Below, piece by piece: positions 29,478-49,750 of a stretch of DNA of 64,000 nucleotides. The notes under the pieces were generated by a model that saw only the letters and a program-made list of their open reading frames with translations, searched no databases and was not told the DNA's origin. The DNA is from a virus (taxonomy: Duplodnaviria; Caudoviricetes). Position numbers and translations under genes: made by a program. The stretch's first letter is position 1. The number at the start of each line of letters is the position of its first letter. Location of the stretch: IMG/VR virus record IMGVR_UViG_2915650412_000004, positions 1-64,000 of that record; one strand, given 5' to 3'.

Positions 29478-31332
29478 TATGCCTGCGCTTGAGCGTGTGA
29501 GCGCTTATGCGCAAGCCGTCATTGATGGCAGAGAAGTTGCCGGCCCTCACGTTCGTAATGCCTGCCGCCGCCATTTCGACGATCTCGAACACGGTCACGA
29601 GCGCGGCCTGTATTGGGATGACGACGCAGCCGACCGCGTGTTTCGGTTCTTTGAAGGGCGTCTCAAGCTTTCTGAAGGTCAGTTTGAAGGCAAGCCATTC
29701 AAGCTGCACGCCTCACAGGCTTTCAAGCTGGGTTCTCTCTTTGGCTGGAAACGTGCCGACGGTTCGCGCCGTTTTAGGCGCGCCTACATCGAGGAGGGCA
29801 AGGGTAATGGCAAGTCTCCGTTTGCTGGCGGTGTCGGTCTGTACGGGCTGATCGCGGACAAGGAAGCTGGCGCGCAGATTTATGCCGCCGCTGCCAAGAA
29901 AGAACAGGCTGGGATTCTGTTTCAGGACGCCGTGAAAATGGTTCGCGCGGCTCCGGCGCTGGTCGAACGACTGAAGTTCAGCGGCGGTATCGGGCGCGAG
30001 TTCAATATCGCGCATCACAAGTCGCAATCGTTTTTTCGCCCGATCTCGAAGGATTCCGGCAAGTCTGGCTCTGGTCCGCGACCGCATTTTGCGCTCTGCG
30101 ACGAGGTGCACGAGCATCCCGACCGCTCGACGATGGAAATGCTTGAGCGCGGCTTTAAGTTTCGTCGTCAGCCGCTGCTGCTGATGATTACGAACTCGGG
30201 CAGCGACAGAAACAGCATTTGCTGGGAAGAACACGAGCATGCCGTCAAGGTAGCTGCTGGTACGCAAACGCCAGATGACGATTTTACCTATGTCGGCGAG
30301 GTGATCGACGACACGACATTTTCCTATGTCTGCGCGCTGGACAAGGGCGACCATCCGCTCAAGGACGAAACCTGCTGGAAGAAGGCTAACCCGCTTCTGG
30401 GCGTTATCTTGACGCAGGAATATCTGGCCGGCGTTGTTGCTCAGGCAAAGCAGATGCCGGGCAAGCTGAACGGCATTCTTCGGCTGCACTTCTGCTGCTG
30501 GACCGATGCCGACAAGGCATGGATGCCGCGCGAGACCGTCGAAAGCGTAATGGACGATTTCGATCCTGAAGTCGAACACGCTGACAAACCCGTTTTCATG
30601 GGCGTCGACCTGTCCGGTAGCAAGGATATGACTGTGCTCGCGTGCGTTGTTCCTACTGGCTTCAAGGAAATGGAGCGGGAAGACGGATCTACCGTCAATC
30701 TGCCGACGTTTGATGCGTGGGTGGAGGCTTGGACGCCAGCTGATACGCTGGAAGCGCGAGAACAGGCTGACAAGGCGCCATATGCGCTTTGGGTAAAACA
30801 GGGGTGGTTGAATGCTCCGCCCGGCAAGCGAATTAGATATGATTTCGTGGCATCGCGGGTCCAGCAACTCGATCAGGCGTTCGATATCAAGGCCATCGCC
30901 TATGACCGCTATGCCTACGACAAGTTCCGCGAGGAAGTCGAAGCGCTCGGGTTGGACATTGAACATGTCGCGCACCCACAGGGCGGCAAGGTTCGGGCTC
31001 GGCCTGAGCCTGCGAAGGTAGAGGCTGCAAAAGCCGCTGGCTTACCGCCGCCGCAAGGCTTGTGGATGCCGGGCTCGGTTCTGGCGCTCGAAGACATGAT
31101 CATCGACGGTCGCATTCGCATGCGCCGCAGTCCGGTGCTTATGACCGCCCTGATGGGTGCCACCTTCGATCATGACCCGCAAGATAACCGGTGGTTCGTG
31201 AAGACGAAGGCGTCAGTGCGCATCGACGCTGCTGTCGCTTTGGCAATGGCGGTTGGTGTGGCGATGGATACACCGATCGAGCCAGCCGACATCGACGACT
31301 TCGTCAACAACATGATCACTATAATTTACTAA
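29461..31332 (+). CDS. terL: Terminase large subunit; last codons supplied by satellite attL
   Basis: EEGKGNGKS Walker A, LCDEVHEH Walker B, GVDLS RNase-H motif, RIDAAVA; start 29461 or 29479. Confidence 0.95.
   Translation: MICLTDMPALERVSAYAQAVIDGREVAGPHVRNACRRHFDDLEHGHERGLYWDDDAADRVFRFFEGRLKLSEGQFEGKPFKLHASQAFKLGSLFGWKRADGSRRFRRAYIEEGKGNGKSPFAGGVGLYGLIADKEAGAQIYAAAAKKEQAGILFQDAVKMVRAAPALVERLKFSGGIGREFNIAHHKSQSFFRPISKDSGKSGSGPRPHFALCDEVHEHPDRSTMEMLERGFKFRRQPLLLMITNSGSDRNSICWEEHEHAVKVAAGTQTPDDDFTYVGEVIDDTTFSYVCALDKGDHPLKDETCWKKANPLLGVILTQEYLAGVVAQAKQMPGKLNGILRLHFCCWTDADKAWMPRETVESVMDDFDPEVEHADKPVFMGVDLSGSKDMTVLACVVPTGFKEMEREDGSTVNLPTFDAWVEAWTPADTLEAREQADKAPYALWVKQGWLNAPPGKRIRYDFVASRVQQLDQAFDIKAIAYDRYAYDKFREEVEALGLDIEHVAHPQGGKVRARPEPAKVEAAKAAGLPPPQGLWMPGSVLALEDMIIDGRIRMRRSPVLMTALMGATFDHDPQDNRWFVKTKASVRIDAAVALAMAVGVAMDTPIEPADIDDFVNNMITIIY
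31304..31324 (+). repeat. attL core TCAACAACATGATCACTATAA
   Basis: Matches 47334-47354 at 20/21 positions; lies in the terL codons for VNNMITI. Confidence 0.92.
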
Positions 31333-31419
31333 GCTTAAAACTAGTAAGAAAATCAAATAGATAGGCCCTTGGGTGGGCCTATTTATAGCTAAAAGCCGCC
31401 GCTATGTATTCATTCGTAA

Positions 31420-31482
31420 AATCAATGGTTTAGCGTGAATTATCGAGAATTGACGGCTTCTCGATGCGACATTGATGCGACA
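31420..31482 (+). promoter_or_regulatory. Putative IHF site and integrase arm-type repeats (left)
   Basis: AATCAAtggtTTA (WATCAAN4TTR) at 31420-31432; GCGACA at 31466 and 31477 (11-bp period), mirrored at 47286 and 47297. Confidence 0.6.
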
Positions 31483-31495
31483 AGAAAGGAAGCAC

Positions 31496-31702
31496 ATGGA
31501 ACAGGAAAAAGAAGGGGCCGACCTGCTCTATGGCGTCCCTGCAATTGCAACGTTCCTCCGTATGAGTGAGCCCGCAGTTTATCATTTATCCCGTCGTGCT
31601 GATTGGCCCGGATTCAAGATCGGCGGCAAGGTCTGCGCTCGCCGCTCAGCAATTGACCAGTGGATTTCCGACATGGAAGCAAAGGCGAGGTCAACACAAT
31701 GA
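31496..31702 (+). CDS. AlpA/excisionase-like HTH protein
   Basis: ADLLYGVPAIATFL...GFKIGGKVCARRSAIDQW. Confidence 0.8.
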   Translation: MEQEKEGADLLYGVPAIATFLRMSEPAVYHLSRRADWPGFKIGGKVCARRSAIDQWISDMEAKARSTQ

Positions 31703-31794
31703 GCGTGGCGTTTCTGCTCGGCTACATGCTGATCTTCGGCGGTGCCATTGTTGGGCCGCGTCTGATGACGCAGGCAGGAAGCGCCGGGAAGTGA
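31699..31794 (+). CDS. Possible 31-aa membrane peptide
   Basis: MSVAFLLGYMLIFGGAIVGP..., ATGA-coupled. Confidence 0.4.
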   Translation: MSVAFLLGYMLIFGGAIVGPRLMTQAGSAGK

Positions 31795-31795
31795 A

Positions 31796-32986
31796 ATGAA
31801 GCGCAAGCACGACATACCGGCATGGCGGCAGCAACAATTGGTCAGGCTGGCCTTACGCCATTCTGAGACAACTAAGGCTGACTGCGCCGTCCTTGCGGAG
31901 ATCGTGCAGCGATACCATGGCGAGTACGGCAACGGCTGGGCCAGCTTCGATATGCTCATTGAAGAGACTGGCCTGCATAAGACCACAATCATCAAGGCAA
32001 AACGCAAGCTTGAACGGCTCGGCTTTGTTTCCGTCCTGTCACCGGGACGCAGGGGCCGCTCAACGGTCTACTTGCCGAATTTTGATTTAGTTCCCGAAAA
32101 AGGTAGTGCACAGACTACCGAAACAAAGGGTAGCGTAGACGCTACCGTAATTGATGGTTTGGGTAGTCAGGACGCTACCGAATATGGCGCTTTAGGTAGC
32201 GTGGACGCTACCACCTCCTACTTACAGTTACCGGTTTACAAAACCGGTATACTGGAAAGTAATATTGACCCTGCTGCGCCGCCCATGGCTGGCCTTACGG
32301 CCGCCAGTGCAGGCGCGCATGGGGAAGGGAAATTCGACCAGCTATATAAAGCGTATGGCCACAGGCGGGGCAGGGCGGATGCTCGCAAGGCATATGAAGC
32401 CCTTGCACTGACCGACGAGGCACATGCCGACATATTGGCCGCCGCTGAGGCATGGCGTCAGGCATGGGCGAGGCAGGGTAATCCTGATGCGCCACGCTTC
32501 ACGCTCGCGAAGTGGCTGGAGCGCGAATGCTACCACGAAGACCCGCCGACCGGCTTTAAGTCCAAAGAGCCGAAGAAACCGAAATCGGAAAGTTTGCCTA
32601 CCCGGAATGCGGCGACGGTAAGCCAGTCCGAAACGCCAGCGCCTGGTGAAGAATATGGCGCTATCGATGTTTGCGCGTTCACTCCTACCGGCACCTTCGA
32701 GGCCGAGATAATCGGCAGCGATGTCATTGCTACCGGGAACGAAGTCGTGTTGCGGCTGAATCTTCAACTGTCTGACGGGAAAGGAACACCTCTCGGTGAG
32801 ACAGCCCATGAATTTTTCGTGCAGGCGAATGAGAAATCCAAACAAGATCGCGGGCAGGCATTCCTTACACAAGTCGCAGAGGCAGTCGGCTTGAGGGCTC
32901 TTGAAGATTCGAGCGATTTTCACGGCAAGCGGTGCCGGGTCACGATCAATAACCGGCGAGAAATCACCTACCACAACACGAGGTAA
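31796..32986 (+). CDS. Satellite replication initiator: N-terminal winged HTH, C-terminal DUF669-like domain
   Basis: WASFDMLIEETGLHKTTIIKAKRKLERLGFV HTH; internal iterons; C-terminus aligns by eye with 11715-12266. Confidence 0.75.
   Translation: MKRKHDIPAWRQQQLVRLALRHSETTKADCAVLAEIVQRYHGEYGNGWASFDMLIEETGLHKTTIIKAKRKLERLGFVSVLSPGRRGRSTVYLPNFDLVPEKGSAQTTETKGSVDATVIDGLGSQDATEYGALGSVDATTSYLQLPVYKTGILESNIDPAAPPMAGLTAASAGAHGEGKFDQLYKAYGHRRGRADARKAYEALALTDEAHADILAAAEAWRQAWARQGNPDAPRFTLAKWLERECYHEDPPTGFKSKEPKKPKSESLPTRNAATVSQSETPAPGEEYGAIDVCAFTPTGTFEAEIIGSDVIATGNEVVLRLNLQLSDGKGTPLGETAHEFFVQANEKSKQDRGQAFLTQVAEAVGLRALEDSSDFHGKRCRVTINNRREITYHNTR
32102..32212. repeat. Four 18-bp palindromic iterons GGTAG-N8-CTACC (satellite origin)
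   Basis: 32102-32119, 32129-32146, 32162-32179, 32195-32212 inside rep, followed by an AT-richer tract. Confidence 0.85.
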
Positions 32987-32988
32987 AT

Positions 32989-33240
32989 ATGGCGAATGAC
33001 TTTTATGACGATGCAGTAGACGAACCAGAAGCCGCGGCACCGGTCCAGCATTTCACCTGCATGATCCAGATCGAGCCGTTTGACGCTGAAACCGAAGACG
33101 ATGAAAAGCTGCGCGTTGTCGGCATTGTGCAAGGCACAGACGATGAAACTTTTGATTTCATCGCGATCAAAACCCTCGAAAATGGCGAGATGTACCCGAC
33201 CCGTGAAGCCACGGTTTGGTCTGTTTCCCAAAAATCCTAA
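32989..33240 (+). CDS. Small acidic hypothetical protein
   Basis: 83 aa, ACACGAGG leader. Confidence 0.65.
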   Translation: MANDFYDDAVDEPEAAAPVQHFTCMIQIEPFDAETEDDEKLRVVGIVQGTDDETFDFIAIKTLENGEMYPTREATVWSVSQKS

Positions 33241-33296
33241 TCACAGATCGTCGTAGCGCCTGCTGTGGTGGCGGGCACCTATTTGCTGCGACAGAT

Positions 33297-33335
33297 CCCC
33301 CGCCCGGTCTCTCCTCCTCGTGTGCCGGGCGGGGG
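33297..33335 (+). ncRNA. Perfect 11-bp hairpin with CU-rich loop TCTCTCCTCCTCGTGTG, 5' of tRNA-Gln
   Basis: CCCCCGCCCGG/CCGGGCGGGGG stem. Confidence 0.6.
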
Positions 33336-33342
33336 CGGTTTC

Positions 33343-33416
33343 TCGGCCTTCGCCTAACGGTAGGGCAGCGCACTTTGAATGCGCCGGTACTGGTTCGATC
33401 CCAGTAGGCCGATCCA
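33343..33416 (+). tRNA. tRNA-Gln(TTG)
   Basis: Acceptor TCGGCCT/AGGCCGA, anticodon stem GCGCA/TGCGC with TTG at 33375-33377, T arm ACTGG-TTCGATC-CCAGT, encoded CCA. Confidence 0.9.
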
Positions 33417-33660
33417 TTTTTTCAAATACGGAGGCTATCGCCCATGACGGAATCCGATCATGCCGAAAACAGCGAATCCGCATTCGACGGCGCTCATCGT
33501 GGTCGGCGCATAAGTTGGGCCGAGTTATACCGGCAACGCCCGGACTTGAAGTCAAATTCTGAAAATCGAAAAGCCGCCGACGAGGCAGCTTAACGACCAA
33601 AAGCGCACCGCGCTTATTTCACCCACCAATTCCCAATTCTGCAAAATAGGAGGCGTCCCG

Positions 33661-34176
33661 ATGCGCAAATCGGCCGTCATTGAAATCCTTGCGCGCCGGC
33701 TCCGCATAGCGCCCGGACGCATTCAAGCAATCGCGGATCGCTTGGCCTCCGCTGGCCTGATTTCGAACGCCGAGGGCAGTAGGCGATATCCTCCTGACCT
33801 GTCCGAACCTGAAATCGTCACGCTGGTTATCGCGGTCATCGCCGATAGTGGCCTTGGCAACGTGAAAGCGACAGTTGACACGTTCTCGTCCTTGGCCAGC
33901 GAAGGGATTGCCTTCGGACACGTTCTTCAACGTGTGCTGTTCGGCCGCCCGGTGGATATCGCACACGTCATCGTCCGTCATGACCCGGCAGGAGTGTCGG
34001 CGGTGATCGACGGCAATCATGCCGTCTATGGCGCTGAAGCACCTGAAAAAGCCGCAACGACGGCGCGCATCATTCCGGGCGATGCACTGATTGCCATCGC
34101 CGCAGAACTGCAAGGCCAGCACCCCCAGCAGGCGGATGCCTTGGTCGAACTTATCAAAATTCGGAGATCGCTATGA
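33661..34176 (+). CDS. Satellite hypothetical protein (possible HTH N-terminus)
   Basis: 171 aa, GGAGG RBS. Confidence 0.7.
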   Translation: MRKSAVIEILARRLRIAPGRIQAIADRLASAGLISNAEGSRRYPPDLSEPEIVTLVIAVIADSGLGNVKATVDTFSSLASEGIAFGHVLQRVLFGRPVDIAHVIVRHDPAGVSAVIDGNHAVYGAEAPEKAATTARIIPGDALIAIAAELQGQHPQQADALVELIKIRRSL

Positions 34177-34463
34177 GCAAGGTTGAAGCGCTGCTCGACC
34201 GTTTGGCGGAAGCCACCGCCGAGTCCGACGACTACGCCGAACTGCCGCCCGAACTCGCTAAAGAGGCAAGGCTGCATGTCTGGGATGCGCATTACGCCAA
34301 TTCAGACGAACGCGCCCGCTTGGACGCGAAACTGGCCGCTTCATCGCCTGAATTTCAGGCTGCTGTCGCGGTCACCGAAACGGCGCTGGCCGAAGAGCTT
34401 GCCGCCAATAATGAGCGACGCGCCCGCGTTCGCAGAGAAAACCCATCTTATTTCAAGGACTAA
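34173..34463 (+). CDS. Satellite hypothetical helical protein
   Basis: 96 aa, coupled between 33661 and the capsid gene. Confidence 0.65.
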   Translation: MSKVEALLDRLAEATAESDDYAELPPELAKEARLHVWDAHYANSDERARLDAKLAASSPEFQAAVAVTETALAEELAANNERRARVRRENPSYFKD

Positions 34464-34465
34464 CT

Positions 34466-35557
34466 ATGACAAATCTCGCAACTATGATTTCCGATCTGGG
34501 CAATGAATTCAAAGCCAGCACCGGCGACCTTTCCTCCCGCATCAGCGAGCTCGAAAAGCGTGCGGCTCGCGAGCCTTCCGGTGATATGCTCTATGCAAAT
34601 GGCGAAACTATCGCCGACAAGATGGTAGAATCCGCAGCCTTCAAGTCGCTGGAGGGTGGTCGCGTCCGTGGCCGTGCGCACGTCGAAATGGCGGCCATCA
34701 CTTCCGGCAACACTACCGTTGGCACTGGTCGCTCCGCAGCTACTTCGCTGGTGGGTGCTGATCGCCGCCCTGGCATTGTTACACCTGCCGAGCGCGTCCT
34801 GACCGTCCGTGACCTTATCGCTCCGGGCGAAACCAGCGCGGGCTCAATCGAATACGTGAAGGAAACGGGCTTTACCAATAATGCCGCTCCCGTCGCTGAA
34901 ACGACGCAGAAGCCTTACTCCGATCTGACATTCGATCTGGTGACGGCACCGGTCCGCACGATTGCGCACCTTTTCAAACTGTCAAAGCAGATCATGGACG
35001 ATGCGCCCGGTCTCGTCAGTTATGTGAACGTGCGCGGTACGTCGGGCCTGAAGCTCAAGGAAGAGAACCAGCTTCTCTTCGGCGACGGTACAGGTCAGAA
35101 CCTTTTGGGCCTGATTCCACAGGCAACCGTATTCGATGACGCGCTACGCTCCACGGGCGACACCCGCGTTGACACTCTGCGCCGTGCTATCCAGCAGGTA
35201 CGCCGTGCCGAATACCGCGCATCCGGCATCATCATGAACCCGGACGACCTCGCCGACCTTGAACTGACCAAGGACGCCGGCGGCAACTACATTATTGTCG
35301 ATCCCGTTGAAGGCGGTCAGGGCCGAGTGTGGCGTCTGCCTATCGTGGACACCACTGCAATGCCAGCGGGTCAGTTCCTCGTTGGTGCGCTCGATACGGC
35401 TGCCCAACTTTTCGACCGTCAACAGGTGATCTTCGAAATCTCGACTGAGAACGCCGACGATTTCGAAAAGAATATGGCGACTGCTCGTATCGAAGAGCGC
35501 CTGGCTCTTGCCGTGTATCGTCCGGAAAGCATCGTTACCGGCCAGTTCGAAGCCTAA
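34466..35557 (+). CDS. HK97-fold major capsid protein paralog (satellite)
   Basis: Long identical blocks with the helper capsid (ITSGNTTVG, RDLIAPG, VKETGFTN, DDAPGL, GDGTGQNL, RIEERLALAVYRPE). Confidence 0.92.
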   Translation: MTNLATMISDLGNEFKASTGDLSSRISELEKRAAREPSGDMLYANGETIADKMVESAAFKSLEGGRVRGRAHVEMAAITSGNTTVGTGRSAATSLVGADRRPGIVTPAERVLTVRDLIAPGETSAGSIEYVKETGFTNNAAPVAETTQKPYSDLTFDLVTAPVRTIAHLFKLSKQIMDDAPGLVSYVNVRGTSGLKLKEENQLLFGDGTGQNLLGLIPQATVFDDALRSTGDTRVDTLRRAIQQVRRAEYRASGIIMNPDDLADLELTKDAGGNYIIVDPVEGGQGRVWRLPIVDTTAMPAGQFLVGALDTAAQLFDRQQVIFEISTENADDFEKNMATARIEERLALAVYRPESIVTGQFEA

Positions 35558-35721
35558 TCACGTTCAGGCGCCGTGAATGTCCGGCTGGCCCTGTCGGCAA
35601 GTTATGGAGCGCGGCGCCGTCCTCCTGAGAGCGCTTCACAACATGGGCACGCCGCTGGCTGGAGTCCCCCGCTTTCGAGCGCGCAGCCAGCGGCTCTTCC
35701 TTTTCAAGAATGGAGATATCA

Positions 35722-35931
35722 ATGCCTGTAGGCAGACTAAAAGCATGGCGTAACGGCTATGGCTTTCTCACAACGGACAACGGTTCGGACATGTTCGTCC
35801 ATATCACCGCATTCCAATTCGCGGGCGAAGAGCCAGAAGTGGGTGCCTTTTACTCGTACAAGGCCGGGATGTTTAAGGACAAGATTATCGCGACCCATCT
35901 GAAGCGTGTGGATGATCATGGCGACGGGTAA
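35722..35931 (+). CDS. Cold-shock domain protein
   Basis: GRLKAW...GYGFL...DMFVHITAF. Confidence 0.85.
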   Translation: MPVGRLKAWRNGYGFLTTDNGSDMFVHITAFQFAGEEPEVGAFYSYKAGMFKDKIIATHLKRVDDHGDG

Positions 35932-36148
35932 GGTCCTCTTTTTCCACAATGGCTACGGCTTCATCGCTGCCGAGCCTTGCAACGTTTTCTTCCATCGCGC
36001 TGCCGTCGATGGCGATGTGCCAAAGGCTGGCGATATGGTCCGCTACGATGCCATGCCAAGTGGCAGGAGTAGCCCTAAGGCGAACAGCGTTCGCGTCATC
36101 GACCAGGACGTCTTGGCCGAAGCTGAGCGGGTGTTTGGGTCGCAATGA
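35918..36148 (+). CDS. Cold-shock domain protein (divergent)
   Basis: TGKVLFF.NGYGFI...NVFFH...GDMVRY...KANSV. Confidence 0.75.
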   Translation: MATGKVLFFHNGYGFIAAEPCNVFFHRAAVDGDVPKAGDMVRYDAMPSGRSSPKANSVRVIDQDVLAEAERVFGSQ

Positions 36149-36441
36149 GTAGAGGTGAAAGCGCAGCTTGGCAGCACCTTTATAAGCGGTCGAGATGGAT
36201 CAAGATGCGTGAGCGACATCTGATGCAGTCGCCCTTGTGCGTTTATTGCCTTGAGGTTGGCAACGTGGAGCCTGCCACGATTTGTGATCATCGCACCCCG
36301 CATAGAGGGAGCGAGGATCTCTTCTGGGACGCTGACAATCTCATGTCCCTTTGCAAGCCCTGTCATGATCGGATCAAGCAGCGCGAAGAACGCGGAGAGA
36401 AGGTCATTCGATTTGGCGCGGACGGATACCCCATCGAGTGA
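36145..36441 (+). CDS. Terminase-associated HNH endonuclease (satellite)
   Basis: CVYC...ICDHRTPHRG...NLMSLCKPCHD; paralog of 28692-28982. Confidence 0.88.
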   Translation: MSRGESAAWQHLYKRSRWIKMRERHLMQSPLCVYCLEVGNVEPATICDHRTPHRGSEDLFWDADNLMSLCKPCHDRIKQREERGEKVIRFGADGYPIE

Positions 36442-36540
36442 CCACCCACCCATAAGGGGGGCAATCGAAGTCTGGAAGCCGCTCGCTCTAGGAGCGGCCC
36501 GGACCCACAACGCATACACGTGCTGCCCCGGTTCAAATAA
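36439..36540 (+). promoter_or_regulatory. Putative satellite cos/packaging region
   Basis: Same HNH-terS position and shared sequence blocks as 28980-29065. Confidence 0.55.
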
Positions 36541-36554
36541 AAATTGGAGGCTCA

Positions 36555-36911
36555 ATGCCCAAAAACCCCACAAATTCAGCGGTCAAACCGCCAAAACACC
36601 TGCGAAAACCAACGCAAAATTGGTTCAAATCTGTAATAGACGACTTCGATTTGGAGCCTCATCATATCAAATTGCTAACTCTTGCTGCTGATGCGTGGGA
36701 TCGGGCGGTCTCTGCGCGCGAAGTAATCGACGCGGATGGGATGACTTACACCGACCGTTTCGGGCAGCCGAAGCCACGCCCAGAAGTCGCAATCGAGCGT
36801 GACTCCCGCATCGGCTTCACCCGCCTTATTCGCGAGCTTGCTTTGGATGGCGTGGATGCTCCAGAAACGCCGCGCCCACCGCGCACTGCCGACTACGGGA
36901 ATAGGCGCTGA
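36555..36911 (+). CDS. terS: Terminase small subunit, P27-like (satellite)
   Basis: PPKHL...W...GMTYTDRFGQPKPRPEVAIERDS...RELAL. Confidence 0.82.
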   Translation: MPKNPTNSAVKPPKHLRKPTQNWFKSVIDDFDLEPHHIKLLTLAADAWDRAVSAREVIDADGMTYTDRFGQPKPRPEVAIERDSRIGFTRLIRELALDGVDAPETPRPPRTADYGNRR

Positions 36912-37147
36912 TGCCCGTTCGTCGCAAAGCCGATAGACGACGCACGACGTTTCTGTTTGAAGATTGGGGGGAATTCCTCGGCACCGGCATCGACATGTTC
37001 TCCGATCTTCACCACGCCGGGATTACGGTCGACCACGAGCCGCCGCCACGCGAACTGGCCGAACAGGCTTGGCGCGCTCTTGGTGCGCAGATTGTCTCCG
37101 CCTATGGCACCGAGTGCTGGGGCGCGCGCGAATTTGGGCAATCCTGA
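36911..37147 (+). CDS. Satellite hypothetical protein
   Basis: 78 aa, starts MPVRRKADRRR. Confidence 0.6.
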   Translation: MPVRRKADRRRTTFLFEDWGEFLGTGIDMFSDLHHAGITVDHEPPPRELAEQAWRALGAQIVSAYGTECWGAREFGQS

Positions 37148-37419
37148 TGCCGGTTCGGAAAAGACACAACCGGCGAGCCGACCGAGTGGATTTCGAGATT
37201 ACGCCTGAAATACGCGCCGCGTTTGAAGCCTACATCGAAAGCGAACCCGTCGAGGGTGGCGGTTGGCGTGAGCATTGGCGTTTGCACGATCTACTGCATG
37301 AGGCGGGCGTCTTGAGGCTGCCATATTGCCCGCCGTGCTGCTTCCATCCACAGGATCACGGAACCAGATGGCAATATGCGCCCCATGCTGTGGCCATCTA
37401 CCGCCATCTTTCACAGTAA
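37147..37419 (+). CDS. Satellite hypothetical protein
   Basis: Start moved to MPVRKRHNRRA (coupled); similar N-terminus to the preceding ORF. Confidence 0.55.
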   Translation: MPVRKRHNRRADRVDFEITPEIRAAFEAYIESEPVEGGGWREHWRLHDLLHEAGVLRLPYCPPCCFHPQDHGTRWQYAPHAVAIYRHLSQ

Positions 37420-37421
37420 AT

Positions 37422-37445
37422 GCCCGCCGTTGAGCGGGCTTTTTT
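37422..37445 (+). terminator. Rho-independent terminator
   Basis: GCCCGC-cgttga-GCGGGC-TTTTTT. Confidence 0.7.
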
Positions 37446-37458
37446 ATGAGGTACATTC

Positions 37459-40466: not shown

Positions 40467-40533
40467 GCGTATTGGATGCCCTTCGGGGTGTCCTGTAACC
40501 GCCTATTGATATTGATGATTGGCGCCTGTCGCA

Positions 40534-40548
40534 GAACGTGATTGGAAC
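40534..40548 (+). promoter_or_regulatory. LexA box upstream of the TA pair
   Basis: GAAC-gtgattg-GAAC (GAAC-N7-GAAC). Confidence 0.55.
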
Positions 40549-40614
40549 AATTCTCAGGCGTTCCTATATAAAACGCTGAACATGTATGAAAAATGTACAG
40601 GTCAGCTAAGCTTG

Positions 40615-40649
40615 CGTGCTACGAAACGAGACGCGAGTTTCGTAGCACG
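40615..40649. repeat. Perfect 13-bp inverted repeat upstream of the TA pair
   Basis: CGTGCTACGAAAC-N9-GTTTCGTAGCACG. Confidence 0.7.
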
Positions 40650-40716
40650 TTGCTTAACATTCGTCAATATGTTAAGTGATGGCATTAACTGAACACCAGA
40701 CAGAAAGGAACGTGCA

Positions 40717-40911
40717 ATGGCAGTTATCTCAAGCGCGTTCGGTCAGGTGAAATTGACCGATGACGACGCTAAGAAGTTTCGTAATCAGGTGACATTCGGT
40801 AAACCAAAAGCAGCCGCACATGAGACTGTCAAGAAAGGGCGCGAGCTCTTCAAGGAGTTTCAGGGCAAGGGTAAAGTGAAGTTTACCGTCAAGGCAGCCA
40901 CGGGGGAATAG
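40717..40911 (+). CDS. Putative antitoxin (64 aa)
   Basis: Small ORF abutting the GNAT gene; VKLTDDDAKKF resembles the toxin-binding end of DUF1778 antitoxins. Confidence 0.65.
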   Translation: MAVISSAFGQVKLTDDDAKKFRNQVTFGKPKAAAHETVKKGRELFKEFQGKGKVKFTVKAATGE

Positions 40912-41442
40912 TTGCCGAACGACGAATTCGAAGTTGAACTAAGACTGATAGAGCCCAGTGATAAAGTCACTGGGCTTTCTCTTGGCAGTGAGGAGTTCAC
41001 GCCGCTGAAGATGTTTATTCAGCGGAAAGCCAAGGATTATCAGGTCAATAGTTTTGCCAGGACTTATGGTCTGTTTGGCCCTGAGGCGAAACTGATCGGT
41101 TATATCACGCTCATCTGCGGCGAGATCCTGACAAAGACGCCCCAGGACGTGATTCCGCCAGAACAGATCTACGACTACAAAACATTTCCATCTGTGAAGA
41201 TTGCCCGCCTTGCCGTCGACAGACGATATCAGGGCAAGGGACTGGGCGATTATCTGGTTTCTTTTGCGATAGGTGTTGTCAAGGACGCGATTGCGCCTCA
41301 CGTCGGTTGTCGTTTCGTCGTTGTTGATTCGAAACAGTCAGCGGTGAGGTTTTATGAGCGTCTCGGCTTCACGCTGCTTGATACAGCTACGAACAGGGCC
41401 AACGAACAGCCGGTGATGTATCTCGACATCCTTAAAGCCTGA
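40912..41442 (+). CDS. GNAT-family toxin (AtaT/TacT-like)
   Basis: IGYITL, PSVKIARLAVDRRYQGKGLGDYL, FVVVDSK...AVRFYERLGF. Confidence 0.85.
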   Translation: MPNDEFEVELRLIEPSDKVTGLSLGSEEFTPLKMFIQRKAKDYQVNSFARTYGLFGPEAKLIGYITLICGEILTKTPQDVIPPEQIYDYKTFPSVKIARLAVDRRYQGKGLGDYLVSFAIGVVKDAIAPHVGCRFVVVDSKQSAVRFYERLGFTLLDTATNRANEQPVMYLDILKA

Positions 41443-41625
41443 TTAGCGTTGATTTCTCAATGATGCGTTCCTGAGCGCCCGTCGTAGGGCGTTTCACCCG
41501 GGATTCCTGTGAACATCCCCTAGCATCAGGGCGGCGCGGGTTGTGCAGGTGGTCCCTTCCAATCATTCTACCTTGGGGCGAGACAGGGAGATAAATGCAA
41601 CCTAACTCACCAAAGCGAGATCACC

Positions 41626-41856
41626 ATGAATACCATTCCTTACACCGCGTCTCTTTCCTGCGGCACTTGCGGCACAAAGGGCGTTCGAATTGACGACGAT
41701 GCGGACGAAAATTCCATCGTTAGATGTAAGAATCCCGACTGCGACACAACTTTCGGCACTTGGGGAGATGTCCGAAAAATGGTTCGCGAAAAAACGGCGA
41801 AGAAAGCCAAGGATGACATCGTTGCATCGCTGAGAAAATCTCTGCGGAAGAGATGA
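41626..41856 (+). CDS. Small Zn-ribbon protein
   Basis: CGTCG...CKNPDC. Confidence 0.65.
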   Translation: MNTIPYTASLSCGTCGTKGVRIDDDADENSIVRCKNPDCDTTFGTWGDVRKMVREKTAKKAKDDIVASLRKSLRKR

Positions 41857-41930
41857 CGTGCGGCGCCCTTCGGGGCGTCTCAACGTCAACTATAGATTGA
41901 TTATTCCACCGAGAACAATTATTCAACCTC

Positions 41931-43109
41931 TTGGTGGAGGGGCTTGTGAAAAAACTAACAATTCGTTATCGGCGCCGGCTTTTATATTGGGCTAACAAAA
42001 GGTCGCGCAAGAAAAACTCAGGCACGGCCAAATTTGGTTATGTTCTGAGCGCAGATAGATTCGACCAAGTAAGGCTACCGTCAAACGCGATACAGATGCC
42101 GAAAGTGTTTTGTTTAGTGCAAAACACCGAACAAACGCTGTCGTTTCTGGAAAAAACGAGGCAGCGGTTGCTTGCCCCCCCATTGTCTGGAACGAGGTCT
42201 CTCGCGGCACATGTAACTGGGAAAAGGAAAAATAAATCCGCGCCGCGATGGATAGGCCCTTATGTTGACTTTACAACCATAGAATTCATCAGCCCAGCCG
42301 CGGCTCTGGTGCTTGCTGCGGAATATCACAGGGCTGTTCTACTGAAAGAACAGAGCACGAAGAATATTTCTCGGCTGTTCTTGGTCGACGTTCATAAATG
42401 GAAGGCAAATGTAATAGAGAGCTTGATTGAAGTAGGATTCTTTGAGCTTTTGAAAATCACTGAAGGTGTACAGGCGCCAGAAGAGGGGGACCGGAAAATT
42501 CTAAAACTTCGCAGTGGCAGTCGAAATCAAGCTGATGAAGTGGATGGATTGCTCAATAGTATTGAGGAAATGTTCAGTGGTGTAGGTTTGAACGCCAACG
42601 ATGCGTGCTTTGAACTTAACGGCGCATTGGGCGAGGCAATGGAGAATGCAGTCCGTTGTGCCTATCCAACTGAAATTTCTTTTGGCCGACCTCATGTTTC
42701 AAAGTGGTGGATGACAGGATCACTTTCGAAGGCTCAGCGTCAAATGACTGTGGCGATATATGATCAGGGAGTATCTATACCAGGTTCGCTTAGTAGTTGG
42801 CAGCTTTACGGTGGATTCCTAAACCGATTTCTAAGGAAGTTCGGTATGGCAAGAGATAGCGCCGACCCCAGATTTGATGGAGATGTCATCGCACTGGCAA
42901 TCGATGAATCTGTTACGTCTACGGGATTGCAAAAACATGGTAAGGGTTTGGGTCATATAAAGGCTTTTATCGATTCCTGTAGCGCTGGCAGTCTGTTAAT
43001 TATAAGTAGGCAGGGAATGTATATATATGAAAAAGGGAAGCCGCCTCTCACGTACAATTTACCGATAAGATTATCAGGTACATTGATCCAGTGGAACGTT
43101 GTAATTTAA
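41931..43109 (+). CDS. Histidine-kinase-like (GHKL) ATPase domain protein
   Basis: LGEAMENAVRCAY (N box), AIYDQGVSIPGSL (G1), GKGLGHI (G2), GTLIQW; AT-rich; start uncertain. Confidence 0.78.
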   Translation: MVEGLVKKLTIRYRRRLLYWANKRSRKKNSGTAKFGYVLSADRFDQVRLPSNAIQMPKVFCLVQNTEQTLSFLEKTRQRLLAPPLSGTRSLAAHVTGKRKNKSAPRWIGPYVDFTTIEFISPAAALVLAAEYHRAVLLKEQSTKNISRLFLVDVHKWKANVIESLIEVGFFELLKITEGVQAPEEGDRKILKLRSGSRNQADEVDGLLNSIEEMFSGVGLNANDACFELNGALGEAMENAVRCAYPTEISFGRPHVSKWWMTGSLSKAQRQMTVAIYDQGVSIPGSLSSWQLYGGFLNRFLRKFGMARDSADPRFDGDVIALAIDESVTSTGLQKHGKGLGHIKAFIDSCSAGSLLIISRQGMYIYEKGKPPLTYNLPIRLSGTLIQWNVVI

Positions 43110-43139
43110 TGGGAGTTAACCTTTAGAAGGTTAAATCAA

Positions 43140-43502
43140 ATGAGCTTGAGAGTCATCGAAGTGCTGGATATTGGAAGAGATTTTACACTGACGCCTGGTG
43201 CTCGGTATAAAAAGCATGGAGATTTTTCTGGCGAAGAATTTCGAACTAAACTTCTGGCTCCTGCTTTGCGGCGTGTAATCAATGCCGACGGGGTTCTGAA
43301 TGTTGTCATTGATACTGTGAAAAGAAGCTATCTGGTTTCTTTTTTAGACGAAGCTTTTGGCGGTTTAATAAGAGACGAAGGCTTTTCTCTAGAGCAAACA
43401 AATCAGCATTTAAATATTGTAAGCTCGAATAAGCGATTCGAGAAATATAGAATACTAGCAAAAAACTATATTCTCCGGGCATCTGAAGAGCATGCCAAGT
43501 AA
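43140..43502 (+). CDS. STAS-like (DUF4325-like) protein
   Basis: GARY...SGEEFRTKLL...SFLDEAFGGL. Confidence 0.78.
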   Translation: MSLRVIEVLDIGRDFTLTPGARYKKHGDFSGEEFRTKLLAPALRRVINADGVLNVVIDTVKRSYLVSFLDEAFGGLIRDEGFSLEQTNQHLNIVSSNKRFEKYRILAKNYILRASEEHAK

Positions 43503-43977
43503 CATTAGCCCAATTTTGCCAATTGTTAGTTTGCTGAGCGCATTTATAGGAGCCGCCGCTGCACTCTTTGGTCACCGCTGGCGTTACCGTGCAGATTACC
43601 GAAATCATTTGGTTACACAACTTATCACCACAATTACCAATGTTGCGGATCTTTCAACCGATTATTGGCTCATGGAAATACATTCTCCAAGCTCTGCTAA
43701 CGCATTGGAGCAAGCTAAGATCGAGGCAAAAATAGAAGGCTTGGTCGAAAAACTGGACGGCAGTATTGAAATAGTTCGACCGCACTTGAGCAAAATTGAT
43801 ATGTTGGGAATTGATATTCCTGCATCTAGGTTTGTTGATGCCTTAACCGGTGGTCAGTTCTCTGTGCCAGCTCGTGCTCAAGATGCTGAACGTGCAAAAG
43901 AGGCACAGGCAGCTGCGGCCTTCTTGATATTGGAGATATCTAAAGCTGCGAATCGTCGAGTACTTGGCATTATGTAG
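43492..43977 (+). CDS. Membrane-anchored hypothetical protein
   Basis: N-terminal TM (ILPIVSLLSAFIGAAAALFG); overlaps the STAS gene. Confidence 0.7.
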   Translation: MPSNISPILPIVSLLSAFIGAAAALFGHRWRYRADYRNHLVTQLITTITNVADLSTDYWLMEIHSPSSANALEQAKIEAKIEGLVEKLDGSIEIVRPHLSKIDMLGIDIPASRFVDALTGGQFSVPARAQDAERAKEAQAAAAFLILEISKAANRRVLGIM

Positions 43978-44103
43978 AAGTTAATATTGGAAATTCTAGT
44001 ACTAACTTTAGATAGGCTTTAACCAACACGGTATTACTGACTTGTGCTCTTAAAGCATTCCAGTTCCAACCGATTGCGGAATTCAGCTATCGCGGTCATG
44101 AAG

Positions 44104-44460
44104 CTACATCGATATGTCGTTAAGCTGCCAGCTATTACCTTCAGGCATATAAGTCACGTCAGCGCGGTATTGAGTTCTCAATTTCGCTCCGAACGAGTTT
44201 TCAGCATCCACGTAGGCATTTACGGTGTATTTGCACCTATCGCGCTCAACCACGCTCACACCGTCAGAATTCGTGCCCCATGGGAATGAGGCTGTGGCGG
44301 GTGCTTTGAGGCGCTTCTTTACGAATTCCTGAGAGATCACGAAGGCCATGGTCTTTGAACCACATGCGTTCGGGTCTTTTCTCTTATTCACCTCGCTATA
44401 CAACCACGCTGCACCGATAATTGTGGCCAGGACTACGATTGCCTTACGTCTTTGCCCCAT
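44104..44460 (-). CDS. Membrane-anchored hypothetical protein
   Basis: N-terminal TM; VKKRLKAPATASFP...VDAENSFGAKLR. Confidence 0.75.
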   Translation of the reverse strand: MGQRRKAIVVLATIIGAAWLYSEVNKRKDPNACGSKTMAFVISQEFVKKRLKAPATASFPWGTNSDGVSVVERDRCKYTVNAYVDAENSFGAKLRTQYRADVTYMPEGNSWQLNDISM

Positions 44461-44489
44461 GAAATCCCCCGGTTGAACGGGCTTTCCAT

Positions 44490-44850
44490 AGCATAGGCAA
44501 GCCTTGCCCCGAAAGGGGAGACTTTAACTTGAATTTTACGATGATTTCGGTAAGGGTATTCGCGGAGCCTGAGAACTCCCGAAGCCGTCCCTTGCCGGGG
44601 ATGGGCTTCATCCGCGATAGGAACAGATCAGCCTTGCCGGGCATGATGTGTTCCGAATTACGACGCGCCCCTTTGCCGTGGGCGTGACCGGCACACTATT
44701 GCCGGGAGTGCCACGGTGCGTCAAGAGGAATCTTGACCTCAATAAAGAAGGCCATGGCGCATGTTCTCGCGGACATGTTCTCAGACTCCCGGCGCCAGTG
44801 CTGATCACTGGTTCACCCGACACGAAAGCCCTGAGAAGCGGACGTGTTCG
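44490..44850 (+). promoter_or_regulatory. Structured leader resembling ash/C4-type immunity regions
   Basis: TTGCC(G/C) repeated five times, GCCGGGAG (44701)/CTCCCGGC (44786) pairing, CCTGAGAA repeated at ~44566 and ~44830. Confidence 0.4.
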
Positions 44851-44869
44851 GTTTTACCGCGAGACCACA

Positions 44870-45139
44870 ATGATTCACCCAGATATTGCGCCTGCCATGA
44901 GTGCGGGCATTTTCCTACAATTCGTCAGGCGAAGCATCGCGGACGAAATTGAGCGCTTGATTTCCATCCTAGATCAGATCGACGGCGACGCCGATCTAGA
45001 ACCGTCATTGGGCGAATACAGCCCGTTCGGCGTGGATGTTGAATGCGACAATAGCGACCTTGAACCAGATGAAGAGGGCGGCTTTGACGAAGAGCCATAC
45101 GACGGCTTTGCCCGCGAGTATTGGGAGGCGCGGGCATGA
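44870..45139 (+). CDS. Acidic hypothetical protein
   Basis: IERLISILDQIDGDADLEPSLG; may be the C-terminal part of a longer ash-like ORF from 44648. Confidence 0.6.
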   Translation: MIHPDIAPAMSAGIFLQFVRRSIADEIERLISILDQIDGDADLEPSLGEYSPFGVDVECDNSDLEPDEEGGFDEEPYDGFAREYWEARA

Positions 45140-45372
45140 GCAGCGTCCACAAAGACAGCAATAGGATTGTGATAGACGGCTACAACAGTCTGACAGCGGC
45201 TATATTCAGCGAAGATCGAATTTGTATCGAGGTCGATGACGAATCGGCTGGTGATACAGAAACGGGCTTTGGTGCGACAGCCCGCATTTATCTTTCGCCA
45301 GACGAAGCCATTGAACTTGGTTCTTGGTTGATTCAGGCGGGGACGACTGCCGGTAAAGGCGGTGCAGCATGA
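45136..45372 (+). CDS. Satellite hypothetical protein
   Basis: ATGA-coupled. Confidence 0.6.
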   Translation: MSSVHKDSNRIVIDGYNSLTAAIFSEDRICIEVDDESAGDTETGFGATARIYLSPDEAIELGSWLIQAGTTAGKGGAA

Positions 45373-45815
45373 CCGACCTTTGCCAACTGGAAGCAGCCCT
45401 TCACGACATTCGCCGATCAAACCAGATCATGGAAGTCCTGATCGAAAGCGTCTCAAGTAATGTCAAGGCGCTGATGTCGGTAGCGAATCTCCCTGCCGGG
45501 ATTACGGCTGACGATAGACTGCTCGAATTTGAGATCAATCGTCAGAGCAGGCATTGTGCCGACGCTGAAACGATCCTCGCAGGAATGCAGAAGCGTGAAC
45601 CCGAAACCGCGGCGAATGTGTTCCTCCTCAATTTGAAGCGCACCGACCTACAGGACGGCACCGAAATCATTCTCGCCGGGAAGCCGCATACCATATCGCG
45701 TTCCTTGATAGGTCCCGATTGGTGGGATTGTCGTCAGGACGGCGAACTCATGGCGTCATTCCCCGCCAGACACCTGTTGAAACATGCATGGGTGCAGGGT
45801 GCCAAGCGTCACTGA
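45369..45815 (+). CDS. Satellite hypothetical protein
   Basis: 148 aa, ATGA-coupled. Confidence 0.6.
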   Translation: MTDLCQLEAALHDIRRSNQIMEVLIESVSSNVKALMSVANLPAGITADDRLLEFEINRQSRHCADAETILAGMQKREPETAANVFLLNLKRTDLQDGTEIILAGKPHTISRSLIGPDWWDCRQDGELMASFPARHLLKHAWVQGAKRH

Positions 45816-45913
45816 CAGGGAAATCATTGCCCTTGCTATCCTGATCGGCGTTGTTCTCGCCGGTCAGGGCTTCAACGGAACAGAACACCTCATTTTACCT
45901 TGAAGGAGAGAAC

Positions 45914-46117
45914 ATGACACACGGGGAAGATAAAGCCGACCTGCTTTATGGGGCGCGGCCTATCGCGGATTTTCTAGGAATGACCGAGAAGCAGGCACGT
46001 CACAGGATTGATGACGGGCATATTCCAACTTTCCGCATTGGCGGCACGATCTGCTCAAGGAAGAGCACCCTGACAAAGTGGCTAGATGAAATGGAAGCGC
46101 AGGAGGCGCGGAAATAA
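45914..46117 (+). CDS. AlpA/excisionase-like HTH protein (paralog of 31496-31702)
   Basis: ADLLYGARPIADFL...TFRIGGTICSRKSTLTKW; coupled to the integrase. Confidence 0.82.
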   Translation: MTHGEDKADLLYGARPIADFLGMTEKQARHRIDDGHIPTFRIGGTICSRKSTLTKWLDEMEAQEARK

Positions 46118-47313
46118 TGGCGAGCGTTCGAAAACGCGAGTGGGAATACAACGGCGCTAAAAAAACAGCGTGGGTGGTAAATTACACCGATCTGGACGGA
46201 AAGCGCCGACTGAAGACATTCGAGAAGAAGAAAGACGCAGATGCTTATCGAGCCAAGGTCGAGGTCGAAGTTGAAGCCGGTTTGCATACCCCGGCGAGTT
46301 CCAAGCGCACAGTCAAGCAGGTTGCCGAGGAATACATCAAGAACTTGGAGTCGCGGTTGGCCGATGGCCGCATCAGCCTCGGATATCTGAAATGCTCAAA
46401 AAGCCGCATCGACAAGCATGTGGTGCCGTTTTTTGGACAGCGGATGTTCGATGAACTGAGCTTAGCGGACTTTGAGGGCTTCTATGATCACCTCGTTACC
46501 AAGGCCGGCAATGCGCCGTTCACAGCGAAAGAAATAATTGCACAGGTAGCCACTATGGAGAAATTCGCAGCTAAGCGCACGATTCCGACGAAATATGCTG
46601 CACGAGAAATGGTCGAAGAATTACGCGGGGTCAAAAGAGGAAAGATTGATACCTTCACCCGCGAACAGGCTATCGCCATTCTTGAAGCTTCTAAGGTGCG
46701 CGAACGGCACCGACAAGCGCGCAATCAAAAGCTTATAGAACTCATGGTGCATTTAGCCGCCATATGCGGCATGAGGCTTGGCGAAATCACTGGATTGAAA
46801 TTGCCCCACGTTAATCTGGAACGGCGGGTGCTAGAGGTCCGGCACAGTATGCAGCCGAATGGTGAGTTGAAAGCCCCCAAAACCAAATCCGGTATACGTG
46901 ATATACCGATGCCAGACGCAATCCACACCATGTTCAAAGAATGGCTGGAACGTTACTATATCCAAAATGACCGGGAGCTTGTTTTCCTGACCTATAACGG
47001 CGGCCCTATGCATCGTCTCGATATCCACCGGCAATGGGTTGATTTGCTCAAGCGGTCGGGCGTGGGTGAAAATGGTCCGTCAGGAACACGATATCATTTT
47101 CATGCCCTTCGCCATTTTGCTGCCAGCTGGATGGTCGATAACAATCTGCCGGTTACTGATGTGGCTCATATTTTAGGGCACAGCAAGTTCGATATGACCC
47201 TACAAGTTTACGCGCATCCATTGCGTGACCAGCGGGAGCGTCACAATGCAATGCAGAATCTTGCTGCCGGATTGCAGCCGTCGGCGCGACAAGAGAGCGA
47301 CAAAGCCGCTTAA
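46117..47313 (+). CDS. int: Tyrosine integrase (satellite)
   Basis: GMRLGEITGL, PKTKSG, FHALRH, LGHSKFDMTLQVYAH (R-K-H-R-H-Y). Confidence 0.95.
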   Translation: MASVRKREWEYNGAKKTAWVVNYTDLDGKRRLKTFEKKKDADAYRAKVEVEVEAGLHTPASSKRTVKQVAEEYIKNLESRLADGRISLGYLKCSKSRIDKHVVPFFGQRMFDELSLADFEGFYDHLVTKAGNAPFTAKEIIAQVATMEKFAAKRTIPTKYAAREMVEELRGVKRGKIDTFTREQAIAILEASKVRERHRQARNQKLIELMVHLAAICGMRLGEITGLKLPHVNLERRVLEVRHSMQPNGELKAPKTKSGIRDIPMPDAIHTMFKEWLERYYIQNDRELVFLTYNGGPMHRLDIHRQWVDLLKRSGVGENGPSGTRYHFHALRHFAASWMVDNNLPVTDVAHILGHSKFDMTLQVYAHPLRDQRERHNAMQNLAAGLQPSARQESDKAA

Positions 47314-47333
47314 ATCGCTGATTTCATTGGCAC

Positions 47334-47354
47334 TCAACAACATGATCACCATAA
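47334..47354 (+). repeat. attR core TCAACAACATGATCACCATAA
   Basis: Followed by CCTGGTAG, the displaced terL end (ITITW-stop), then the portal RBS. Confidence 0.92.
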
Positions 47355-47370
47355 CCTGGTAGGAGTGCCC

Positions 47371-49734: not shown

Positions 49735-49750
49735 ATCACAGGAGCCATTC

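Follow-up and report, generated by a model that had tools for sequence, protein, structure and literature searches.

The window analysed here is a 64,000-nucleotide stretch of DNA (positions 1 to 64,000 of IMG/VR record IMGVR_UViG_2915650412_000004; G000:C28:16171-80170) that lies wholly within one prophage, in which a 16,030-bp segment separates the large terminase gene (terL) from the portal gene. We refer to this segment as the satellite and to the surrounding prophage as its presumed helper. A tRNA-SeC gene (C28:14617-14712) follows selB, and its 3' 15-mer is repeated at C28:14698 and 93108; the latter copy marks the right prophage end, beside a P4-type integrase gene that is followed by the host cyclopropane-fatty-acid-synthase (CFA-synthase) gene. 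The composite prophage measures 78.4 kb (C28:14698-93122), and 62.4 kb (62,380 bp) with the insert subtracted. Besides the P4-type integrase, the prophage encodes a CI-like helix-turn-helix (HTH)/S24 repressor, replication genes, an HNH-terS-terL cluster, a portal, an S49 protease, an HK97-fold capsid, a tape measure and tail-tip genes. It looks complete, as a temperate, siphovirus-like prophage integrated at tRNA-SeC, and phages of Rhizobium and Sinorhizobium have similar terL genes. As one of the relatives compared is Brucella pituitosa, we place the locus in the genus Brucella in the broad sense, including Ochrobactrum.

The satellite is inserted two codons ahead of the terL stop and is bounded by a 21-bp direct repeat, the two copies of which are identical at 20/21 positions and delimit a unit running from 31304 to 47333. 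At the left junction terL ends in ...DDFVNNMITIIY and a stop at 31332, where the satellite-derived I-Y-stop replaces the original T-W-stop and TerL retains its full length. The right junction reads ...LNNMITITW-stop, with the TAG overlapping the AGGAG ribosome-binding site eight bases ahead of the portal ATG. The junction that precise excision would restore is present letter for letter in three genomes of the same genus (G008, G036 and G027), in which ...gacttcgTCAACAACATGATCACTATAAcctggtaggagtgcccatgg is found, terL ends in ITITW-stop, and AGGAG and the portal ATG follow. In these genomes terL is 92-97% identical over the last kilobase and ...TCAACAACATGATCACTATAAcctggtaggagtgcccatgg continues directly into portal. 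Megablast alignment of the contig to G008 ends at window position 31324 and restarts at 47334, with 21 bp common to both segments. The preliminary description of this DNA had reported both the bounding repeats and the exchange of terL tails, and it had raised empty-site relatives and an assembly artefact as the points on which its reading would turn. The repeats and tails can be read directly at the locus, three empty sites are now known, and an artefact is excluded by a 2.9-kb sediment metagenome contig (L125, 97% identical) that independently carries the same int-core-portal junction. Its phrase of an element "repairing the reading frame" fares less well: the satellite does supply I-Y-stop in place of T-W-stop, but with the insertion only two codons before the stop the wording is overstated. 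An ordinary accessory (moron) region or an assembly chimera without mobility of its own would fit the co-orientation of the segment with the late operon and its phage-like GC content (~55-57% apart from the cargo genes). We give this explanation almost no weight in view of the direct repeats, the satellite's own integrase and Rep, the exact empty sites and the junction shared with L125.

In the window copy the coding sequence of terL survives and only the continuity of the operon is broken, terL and portal now lying 16 kb apart. A comparison of natural TerL tails, restricted to rows in which a TerL-like tail is followed by a portal start, returned ITITW, VVIA and LLIL. Since these tails vary naturally, the IIY tail, hydrophobic like the natural variants, is plausibly tolerated. 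Short matches to the terL tip in G063, G078, G107 and G064 were also considered as possible scars of past satellites. Those in G063 and G078 represent a conserved terL-tip/portal junction joined to different terL bodies and were attributed to phage mosaicism. In G063 (L036/L037) and G078 (L038) the last ~41 nt of terL and the portal (97% protein identity) are kept, and the terL body is only 29% identical. The conservation of tip and portal beside a divergent terL body places the satellite attB on a module boundary of phage mosaicism.

All satellite genes but one are transcribed from the plus strand, in the same direction as terL, portal and the rest of the late operon (Table 1). The AlpA-like gene comes first here and its homologues come first in related elements too. 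Within rep lie three 18-bp palindromic iterons (32129, 32162 and 32195; 33-bp spacing) that probably form the origin of replication. By BLASTP, the satellite major capsid protein (MCP) is 57% identical to that of the helper but is missing ~50 N-terminal residues. The small terminases of the two show no cross-match and belong to different families. A tail module of TAC, gp10-like and tape-measure genes, found repeatedly in relatives of the satellite, precedes two sets of cargo genes: a 64-aa open reading frame (ORF) with a GNAT acetyltransferase, possibly a toxin-antitoxin pair, and a low-GC group that may be an undescribed defence or partner-switching module. PADLOC found nothing in the cargo and, in the element as a whole, only a weak CSD match. 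For the backbone ORFs o163 and o148 neither Pfam nor PHROG gave a family, and a protein atlas gave no usable lead. Pfam and PHROG searches of the satellite ORFs found no portal, protease, TerL, tail tube, baseplate or lysis families, and as the largest unassigned ORF encodes 171 aa, none is big enough for a portal or TerL. Lacking portal, protease, TerL, tail tube and lysis genes, the element is therefore a satellite in need of a helper and not a phage. It has the general make-up of satellites in two respects. As an integrative element it is compact and brings its own integrase, att repeats and replication module, and it carries genes whose annotation, the sole source for their function, points to redirection of packaging and assembly (TerS, HNH and the N-terminally shortened MCP).

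Table 1 Features of the satellite and adjoining helper genes, in window coordinates.
Feature	Position	Strand	Evidence and remarks
Helper HNH	28692-28982		
Helper TerS	29091-29477		PHROG 83
Helper large terminase, terL	29392-31332	+	Pfam TerL_ATPase, TerL_nuclease; 71% identical to Rhizobium phage TerL
attL core, left copy of 21-bp direct repeat	31304-31324	+	TCAACAACATGATCACTATAA; identical to attB of empty sites G008, G036, G027
GC-rich hairpin, 12-bp stem, just inside left end	31357-31386	+	Fold energy -19.9 kcal/mol; terminator-like, weak U-tract on + strand; terminator scan: - strand
Doubled motif GCGACAttgatGCGACA, 11-bp period, putative arm-type site	31466-31482	+	Directly upstream of alpA-like start codon
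AlpA-like HTH protein (MerR/excisionase-type), first gene	31472-31702, probable start ATG 31497	+	Pfam HTH_17, 24.3 bits, below cut-off
Replication initiator, Rep	31796-32986	+	Pfam HTH_36; PHROG 270 "replication initiation protein"; 46% identical to G022 element Rep
tRNA-Gln (UUG)	33343-33416	+	ARAGORN
Two ORFs, 171 aa and 96 aa, upstream of capsid gene	33661-34463	+	No Pfam, PHROG or PADLOC family above threshold
Satellite MCP, HK97 fold	34466-35557	+	Pfam Phage_capsid, E 2.8e-58
Small OB/cold-shock-like protein	35710-35931	+	Pfam CSD, 24.8 bits, below cut-off; weak PADLOC CSD_V match
HNH endonuclease	36145-36441	+	Pfam HNH; paralogue of helper HNH, 46% identical (tblastn)
Small terminase TerS, P27/Terminase_4 family	36555-36911	+	Pfam Terminase_4
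Conserved 78-aa ORF after terS	36911-37147	+	Homologue after TerS in Sphingomonas laterariae element L040
Strong intrinsic-terminator-like hairpin with T6 run, between head/packaging and tail modules	37422-37439	+	
Tail module: Phage_TAC_11	37459-37827	+	Pfam
Tail module: HK97-gp10-like	37820-38260	+	Pfam
Tail module: tape measure, 738 aa	38250-40466	+	Pfam
Cargo: 64-aa ORF and GNAT acetyltransferase	40717-41442	+	Pfam Acetyltransf_1/7/10
Low-GC cargo (42-47% GC): HATPase_c_2 protein, DUF4325 (STAS-like) protein, 161-aa ORF	41931-43977	+	Pfam; GC profile
Only minus-strand satellite gene, 118 aa	44104-44460	-	PHROG 13160, function unknown
Conserved backbone ORFs o163, o148	44648-45815	+	72% and ~40% identical to G022 element counterparts
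Second HTH_17 protein, adjoining int (Xis-like position)	45851-46117	+	Weak Pfam HTH_17, 18.6 bits; 40% identical to left-end AlpA-like protein
Tyrosine integrase, last gene	46117-47313	+	Pfam Phage_integrase, E 1.6e-28
Doubled motif GCGACAagagaGCGACA, putative arm-type site	47286-47302	+	Within int 3' end
attR core, right copy of 21-bp direct repeat	47334-47354	+	TCAACAACATGATCACCATAA
Helper portal	47365-48609, probable start ATG 47372	+	Pfam Phage_portal, E 3.3e-96; AGGAG ribosome-binding site overlaps original terL stop
Helper MCP	49706-50962		

The satellite integrase belongs to a clade that adjoins phage late genes. A profile-guided scan of one genome per species yielded ~30 alphaproteobacterial integrase loci, a large protein collection yielded 238 integrase clusters at E <=1e-40, and IMG/VR added 35 further loci. 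The gene just downstream of int was then classified by Pfam, by precomputed Pfam on called genes, or by a panel of annotated proteins. Among the 44 non-duplicate integrases scoring at least 150 bits to that of the satellite, 34 are followed within 2.6 kb, on the same strand, by a gene for a phage head, packaging or tail protein, and 17 of these are next to terL; the less biased genome collection alone gives 12 of 18. The further terL insertions that the preliminary description had proposed looking for through the integrase do exist, and one of them, described below, splits the gene. Targets of the clade comprise terL of the Terminase_1 type, the unrelated terL of the GpA type, portals of the Phage_portal, Phage_portal_2 and Phage_portal_3 families, capsid and prohead protease genes, and its genera include Brucella/Ochrobactrum, Sphingomonas, Xanthobacter, Azospirillum, Methylobacterium, Mesorhizobium and Devosia. 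In the integrase tree close integrases share a site and switching between late genes recurs, and more distant integrases form a derived subclade at chromosomal sites or prophage ends.

Several relatives are themselves embedded in late genes. The element of Brucella pituitosa CCUG 50899 (G022 = L034/L035, NZ_PYSY02000002.1 ~773360-789945) is a 16.6-kb insertion at about codon 184 of terL; an exact 23-bp direct repeat, ATTCTCTTTCAGGACGCTGTGAA, flanks it, and TerL is truncated at about residue 190, ending ...KMVFSVAISIR-stop. Its Int, Rep and o163 are 38%, 46% and 72% identical to those of the satellite, and it encodes its own portal-, capsid-, HNH- and TerL-like proteins. A TerL nuclease fragment adjoins a third relative, which comes from a Mesorhizobium metagenome-assembled genome. 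Two IMG/VR prophages close to the helper (L138 and L137) carry elements inside the portal gene, at codons ~108 and ~339. Xanthobacter sp. DSM 24535 harbours two elements on two contigs (L042 and L044) whose integrases are sisters (97% support); one occupies a GpA-type terL and the other the 3' end of a capsid gene, apparently the outcome of a recent switch of site. Two further loci of the clade show other arrangements. In Methylorubrum suomiense the ORF after int (L057:11175-12077) fuses a C-terminal portal fragment (Phage_portal_3, profile 292-355) to an Acb1 anti-CBASS domain, and an IMG/VR locus (L145:8692-11212) holds two clade integrase genes in tandem, possibly from tandem or nested elements.

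Two other regions of the same genome share genes with the locus. A second resident prophage (G000:C23:227900-263000) has a TerS and a TerL that are 76% and 77% identical to those of the helper, and a GNAT fragment 76% identical to the satellite GNAT. Outside the window, a ~16-kb island (G000:C1:582873-598668) encodes an integrase (28% identical to that of the satellite), an HTH_17 protein, portal-like, capsid, gp10-like and TerL-like proteins and a tape-measure C-terminus, the last 44% identical to the satellite tape measure. This island has the look of a capsid-forming satellite in a chromosomal position.

Furthermore, the ends of the satellite carry features that recur across the clade. The exact pattern GCGACA-N5-GCGACA, recorded in the preliminary description as paired repeats with an 11-bp period at both ends, has just two occurrences in the 64 kb, one within each end of the satellite and both in the same orientation, compared with ~0.008 expected for 12 specified bases. 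Measured from the core centre, one copy is ~50 bp upstream and the other ~160 bp downstream. In the G022 element, TTGCGCA-N4-TTGCGCA is found ~40 nt upstream of the core, with a copy bearing one mismatch ~140 nt downstream, just ahead of the alpA-like start, and the G151 circle has one-mismatch versions of the doubled motif on both arms. L165, an element that splits a capsid-like gene, carries a 17-mer identical to that of the window, though its integrase is only ~30% identical to that of the satellite. Relative to the int stop, a GCGACA-like doubled motif falls between -110 and +30 at 27 of 59 loci across the clade, compared with 1.8% of random segments. This conserved layout, together with the enrichment in the clade, argues that the paired GCGACA motifs are arm-type sites of the integrase family. 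In the G022 element, L165 and the G151 circle, the core is likewise followed by a hairpin like the one just inside the left end of the satellite. The insertion pushes portal and all later head and tail genes of the helper downstream by 16 kb and puts at least two terminator-like hairpins in front of them.

A free form is found within the integrase family. IMGVR_UViG_3300004213_000426 (L164/L168/L169), classed as having direct terminal repeats, closes through a 56-base exact end overlap into a 10,700-bp circle in which an intact 433-aa integrase gene spans the junction. Its genes follow the order int, short attP region, AlpA-like, capsid, HNH, TAC_11, gp10-like, tape measure and Xis-like. The integrase is sister to that of L165, and the attP resembles the left part of the L165 attR joined to the right part of its attL, including the hairpin after the core. 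The circle thus supports excision within the integrase family, although not for the window copy. It also bears on the idea that the segment is a decayed small temperate phage, a prophage remnant nested in another prophage and not adapted to parasitise it, whose capsid, HNH, TerS, tail chaperone, gp10-like, tape-measure and integrase genes would be the left-overs of a full phage. A relative of 10.7 kb with the same partial module and an intact integrase exists as a free circle; the compact layout of ~7-17 kb, opening with the AlpA-like gene and Rep, continuing with a partial late module and closing with int, is repeated across many genera, which random decay would not be expected to produce; and the satellite ORFs are intact in an element known from two copies, 97% identical, from different samples. 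We consider a remnant of this kind very improbable.

A further possibility is that the satellite is genuine but the embedding prophage is a mere landing pad with a conserved and harmless terL tip, the real helper being another phage, such as the C23 prophage or an infecting phage. The unbroken terL agrees with this, as does the satellite HNH, which is about equally similar (46%) to both resident HNH genes. Several results weigh against a satellite adapted to the prophage that surrounds it, or against parts of that argument. The C-terminal half of the satellite tape measure is 52% identical to that of the C23 prophage, whereas the tape measure of the embedding prophage matches only in patches (26-30%). 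By blastn, similarity between satellite and embedding prophage is confined to the capsid gene (66% nucleotide identity), with no cos region or cos-like DNA in common. The exact attP pattern (int-side arm, core, alpA-side arm) had no match in viral or metagenome contigs, a negative of little weight because the pattern demanded identity. On the plus strand the U-tract of the left-end hairpin is poor, so that transcription may not terminate there, and both HTH_17 (PF12728) matches fall below the 27-bit cut-off. The integrase tree comes from a quick search with SH-aLRT support only and leaves much of its backbone unresolved. On the other side, the satellite MCP is closest to that of the embedding prophage, with 52% identity to that of the C1 island; without portal, protease and TerL the satellite must fit the head machinery of some helper; the C23 prophage lacks the attB tip; and the targets of the clade are late genes, usually broken by the insertion, which is hard to square with a neutral harbour. 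A mere landing pad is thus an unlikely, if not negligible, explanation. Very probably, we are dealing with a helper-embedded phage satellite lodged in terL of the surrounding Brucella/Ochrobactrum prophage, and the preliminary description's view of an integrase-borne satellite parting terL from portal is borne out.

In order to rationalise how such an element might operate, we infer, by analogy with known satellites, that the surrounding prophage would be a functional helper from which the satellite excises on induction. The satellite integrase would have recombined attP, through its 21-bp core, with the matching sequence at the 3' tip of terL, attP supplying the I-Y-stop. As in helper-embedded phage-inducible chromosomal islands (HE-PICIs) and other phage-inducible chromosomal islands (PICIs), SOS cleavage of the helper CI-like S24 repressor may result in the composite being excised and replicated. 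Late transcription of the helper could then enter the satellite and switch on the alpA-like gene, rep and, further on, the xis-like gene and int. Int acting at the doubled GCGACA arms with one or both HTH_17 proteins would excise the satellite, rejoin terL to portal and allow full late expression of the helper, while the satellite circle might replicate from the iterons inside rep. Satellite TerS and HNH are candidates for directing helper TerL to satellite DNA, and the shortened capsid paralogue, with the TAC/gp10/tape-measure set, could alter helper-derived heads and tails.

The lengths involved are consistent with a need for excision. The composite is 126% of helper length and, given the general packaging limit discussed for lambda (PMC10111431), should not fit the helper head, as the preliminary description had expected from the more than 48 kb of helper then in view. 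The helper (62,380 bp) is very nearly four times as long as one satellite unit, four units amounting to 102.8% of its length. Satellite tetramers in helper-sized heads, which would suit cos-to-cos packaging, are therefore as open a possibility as small capsids. More speculatively, an attachment site inside a prophage requires DNA entry into cells that already carry the helper, and the tape measure/chaperone/gp10 module may serve this need; with a tape measure of its own, the satellite could evade barriers to DNA entry that the helper encodes.

If two unrelated integrase clades have both settled on phage late genes, helper embedding would be a convergent and probably general satellite strategy and not the quirk of one lineage. 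The alphaproteobacterial elements form a graded series, from the non-disruptive terL tip of the window through mid-gene terL, portal and capsid insertions to a free circle, which could separate the benefit of gene disruption from that of operon splitting and passive co-replication. They also place satellites in a host group (plant symbionts, Brucella/Ochrobactrum) for which the literature searched held no description, and the recurrent satellite-encoded tape measure leads to testable questions on tail length and DNA entry.

The closest published systems are the HE-PICIs, satellites in the late genes of prophages whose founder is Eco567.11capE of E. coli NRG857c (Tommasini, Mageeney and Williams 2023, NAR Genom Bioinform 5:lqad036, PMC10111431). 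Their sites include large terminases (A:Terminase_1:132/245/246), so that the novelty implied by the preliminary description does not stand (PMC10111431). HE-PICIs constitute a single 11capE integrase clade, defined by a 400-bit cut-off against the 11capE integrase; in the survey phage surroundings were found only in Enterobacterales, and all islands came from Enterobacteriaceae (PMC10111431). Their zones are Int, AlpA, Bro, Replication (primase) and Late, a doubled arm motif tgTGTATTGCantgTGTATTGCa lies, relative to the attP centre, ~81 bp upstream and ~132 bp downstream, and their attP brings no replacement sequence, the target late gene remaining disrupted until excision (PMC10111431). The satellite described here resembles them as a 10-20-kb element within a prophage late gene and co-oriented with it, in an integrase clade that repeatedly changes late-gene sites, in a capsid paralogue and captured late genes, in a doubled 11-bp-period motif placed co-oriented once on each attP arm, and in a composite too long for the helper head.

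The differences are also considerable. By BLASTP the satellite integrase scores 28.9 bits to that of 11capE (NC_017634 1199503-1200738; 21% identity over 189 aa), the two having no relationship beyond their tyrosine-recombinase fold, and in the tree 11capE stands apart from all 59 clade members (branch support 99%), grouping with the helper's own P4-type integrase. Hosts of the satellite's clade are Alphaproteobacteria, in contrast to the Enterobacteriaceae of HE-PICIs. The satellite is ordered AlpA-like, Rep, late genes, cargo, Xis-like HTH_17 and Int, whereas int comes first in the 11capE annotation, and it appears to replicate by an initiator and iterons, in place of the primase annotated in 11capE. 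Its arm motif is GCGACA at ~50 and ~160 bp, not TGTATTGC at 81 and 132 bp, and Phage_AlpA (PF05930), the HE-PICI signature, was not reported in the satellite, only the HTH_17 matches below cut-off. The window copy brings a replacement tail that leaves terL unbroken, although the B. pituitosa relative does disrupt terL, and the TAC/gp10/tape-measure module is recurrent in the satellite's family, unlike in HE-PICIs.

Capsid-forming PICIs (cf-PICIs) bring all their own head and packaging genes (MCP, protease, portal, connectors, TerS, TerL and HNH) and rely on the helper for tails only. cf-PICIs and PICIs occupy chromosomal sites and are not known to have tape-measure genes. With cf-PICIs and Gram-negative PICIs the satellite shares an integrase, an AlpA-type regulator, a replication module, its own TerS, HNH and HK97-fold capsid, the absence of lysis genes, and missing virion parts that would have to come from the helper. 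Unlike cf-PICIs it has no portal, protease or TerL and yet has a partial tail module; its B. pituitosa relative, as described above, has the portal- and TerL-like genes. Small HK97 elements (PMC13669383) were considered as a match and set aside as a different class of ~8.7 kb without terminase or tail genes. In "regulated gene integrity", intervening elements interrupt a gene that excision restores (PMC10111431). The satellite is comparable in being integrase-borne and in that its precise excision would restore the original arrangement, and the B. pituitosa element truly splits its gene; here, however, it is a phage genome that is interrupted, and the inserted parasite presumably benefits. The literature searched, coverage of which was incomplete, gave no description of such satellites in Alphaproteobacteria. 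Embedding in a helper was thus already published in 2023, and what appears to be new is an unrelated, alphaproteobacterial integrase lineage. On balance, we therefore favour the view that the satellite represents a second, evolutionarily independent lineage of helper-embedded satellites, widespread in Alphaproteobacteria, whose tropism for phage late genes has probably converged with that of the enterobacterial HE-PICI clade.

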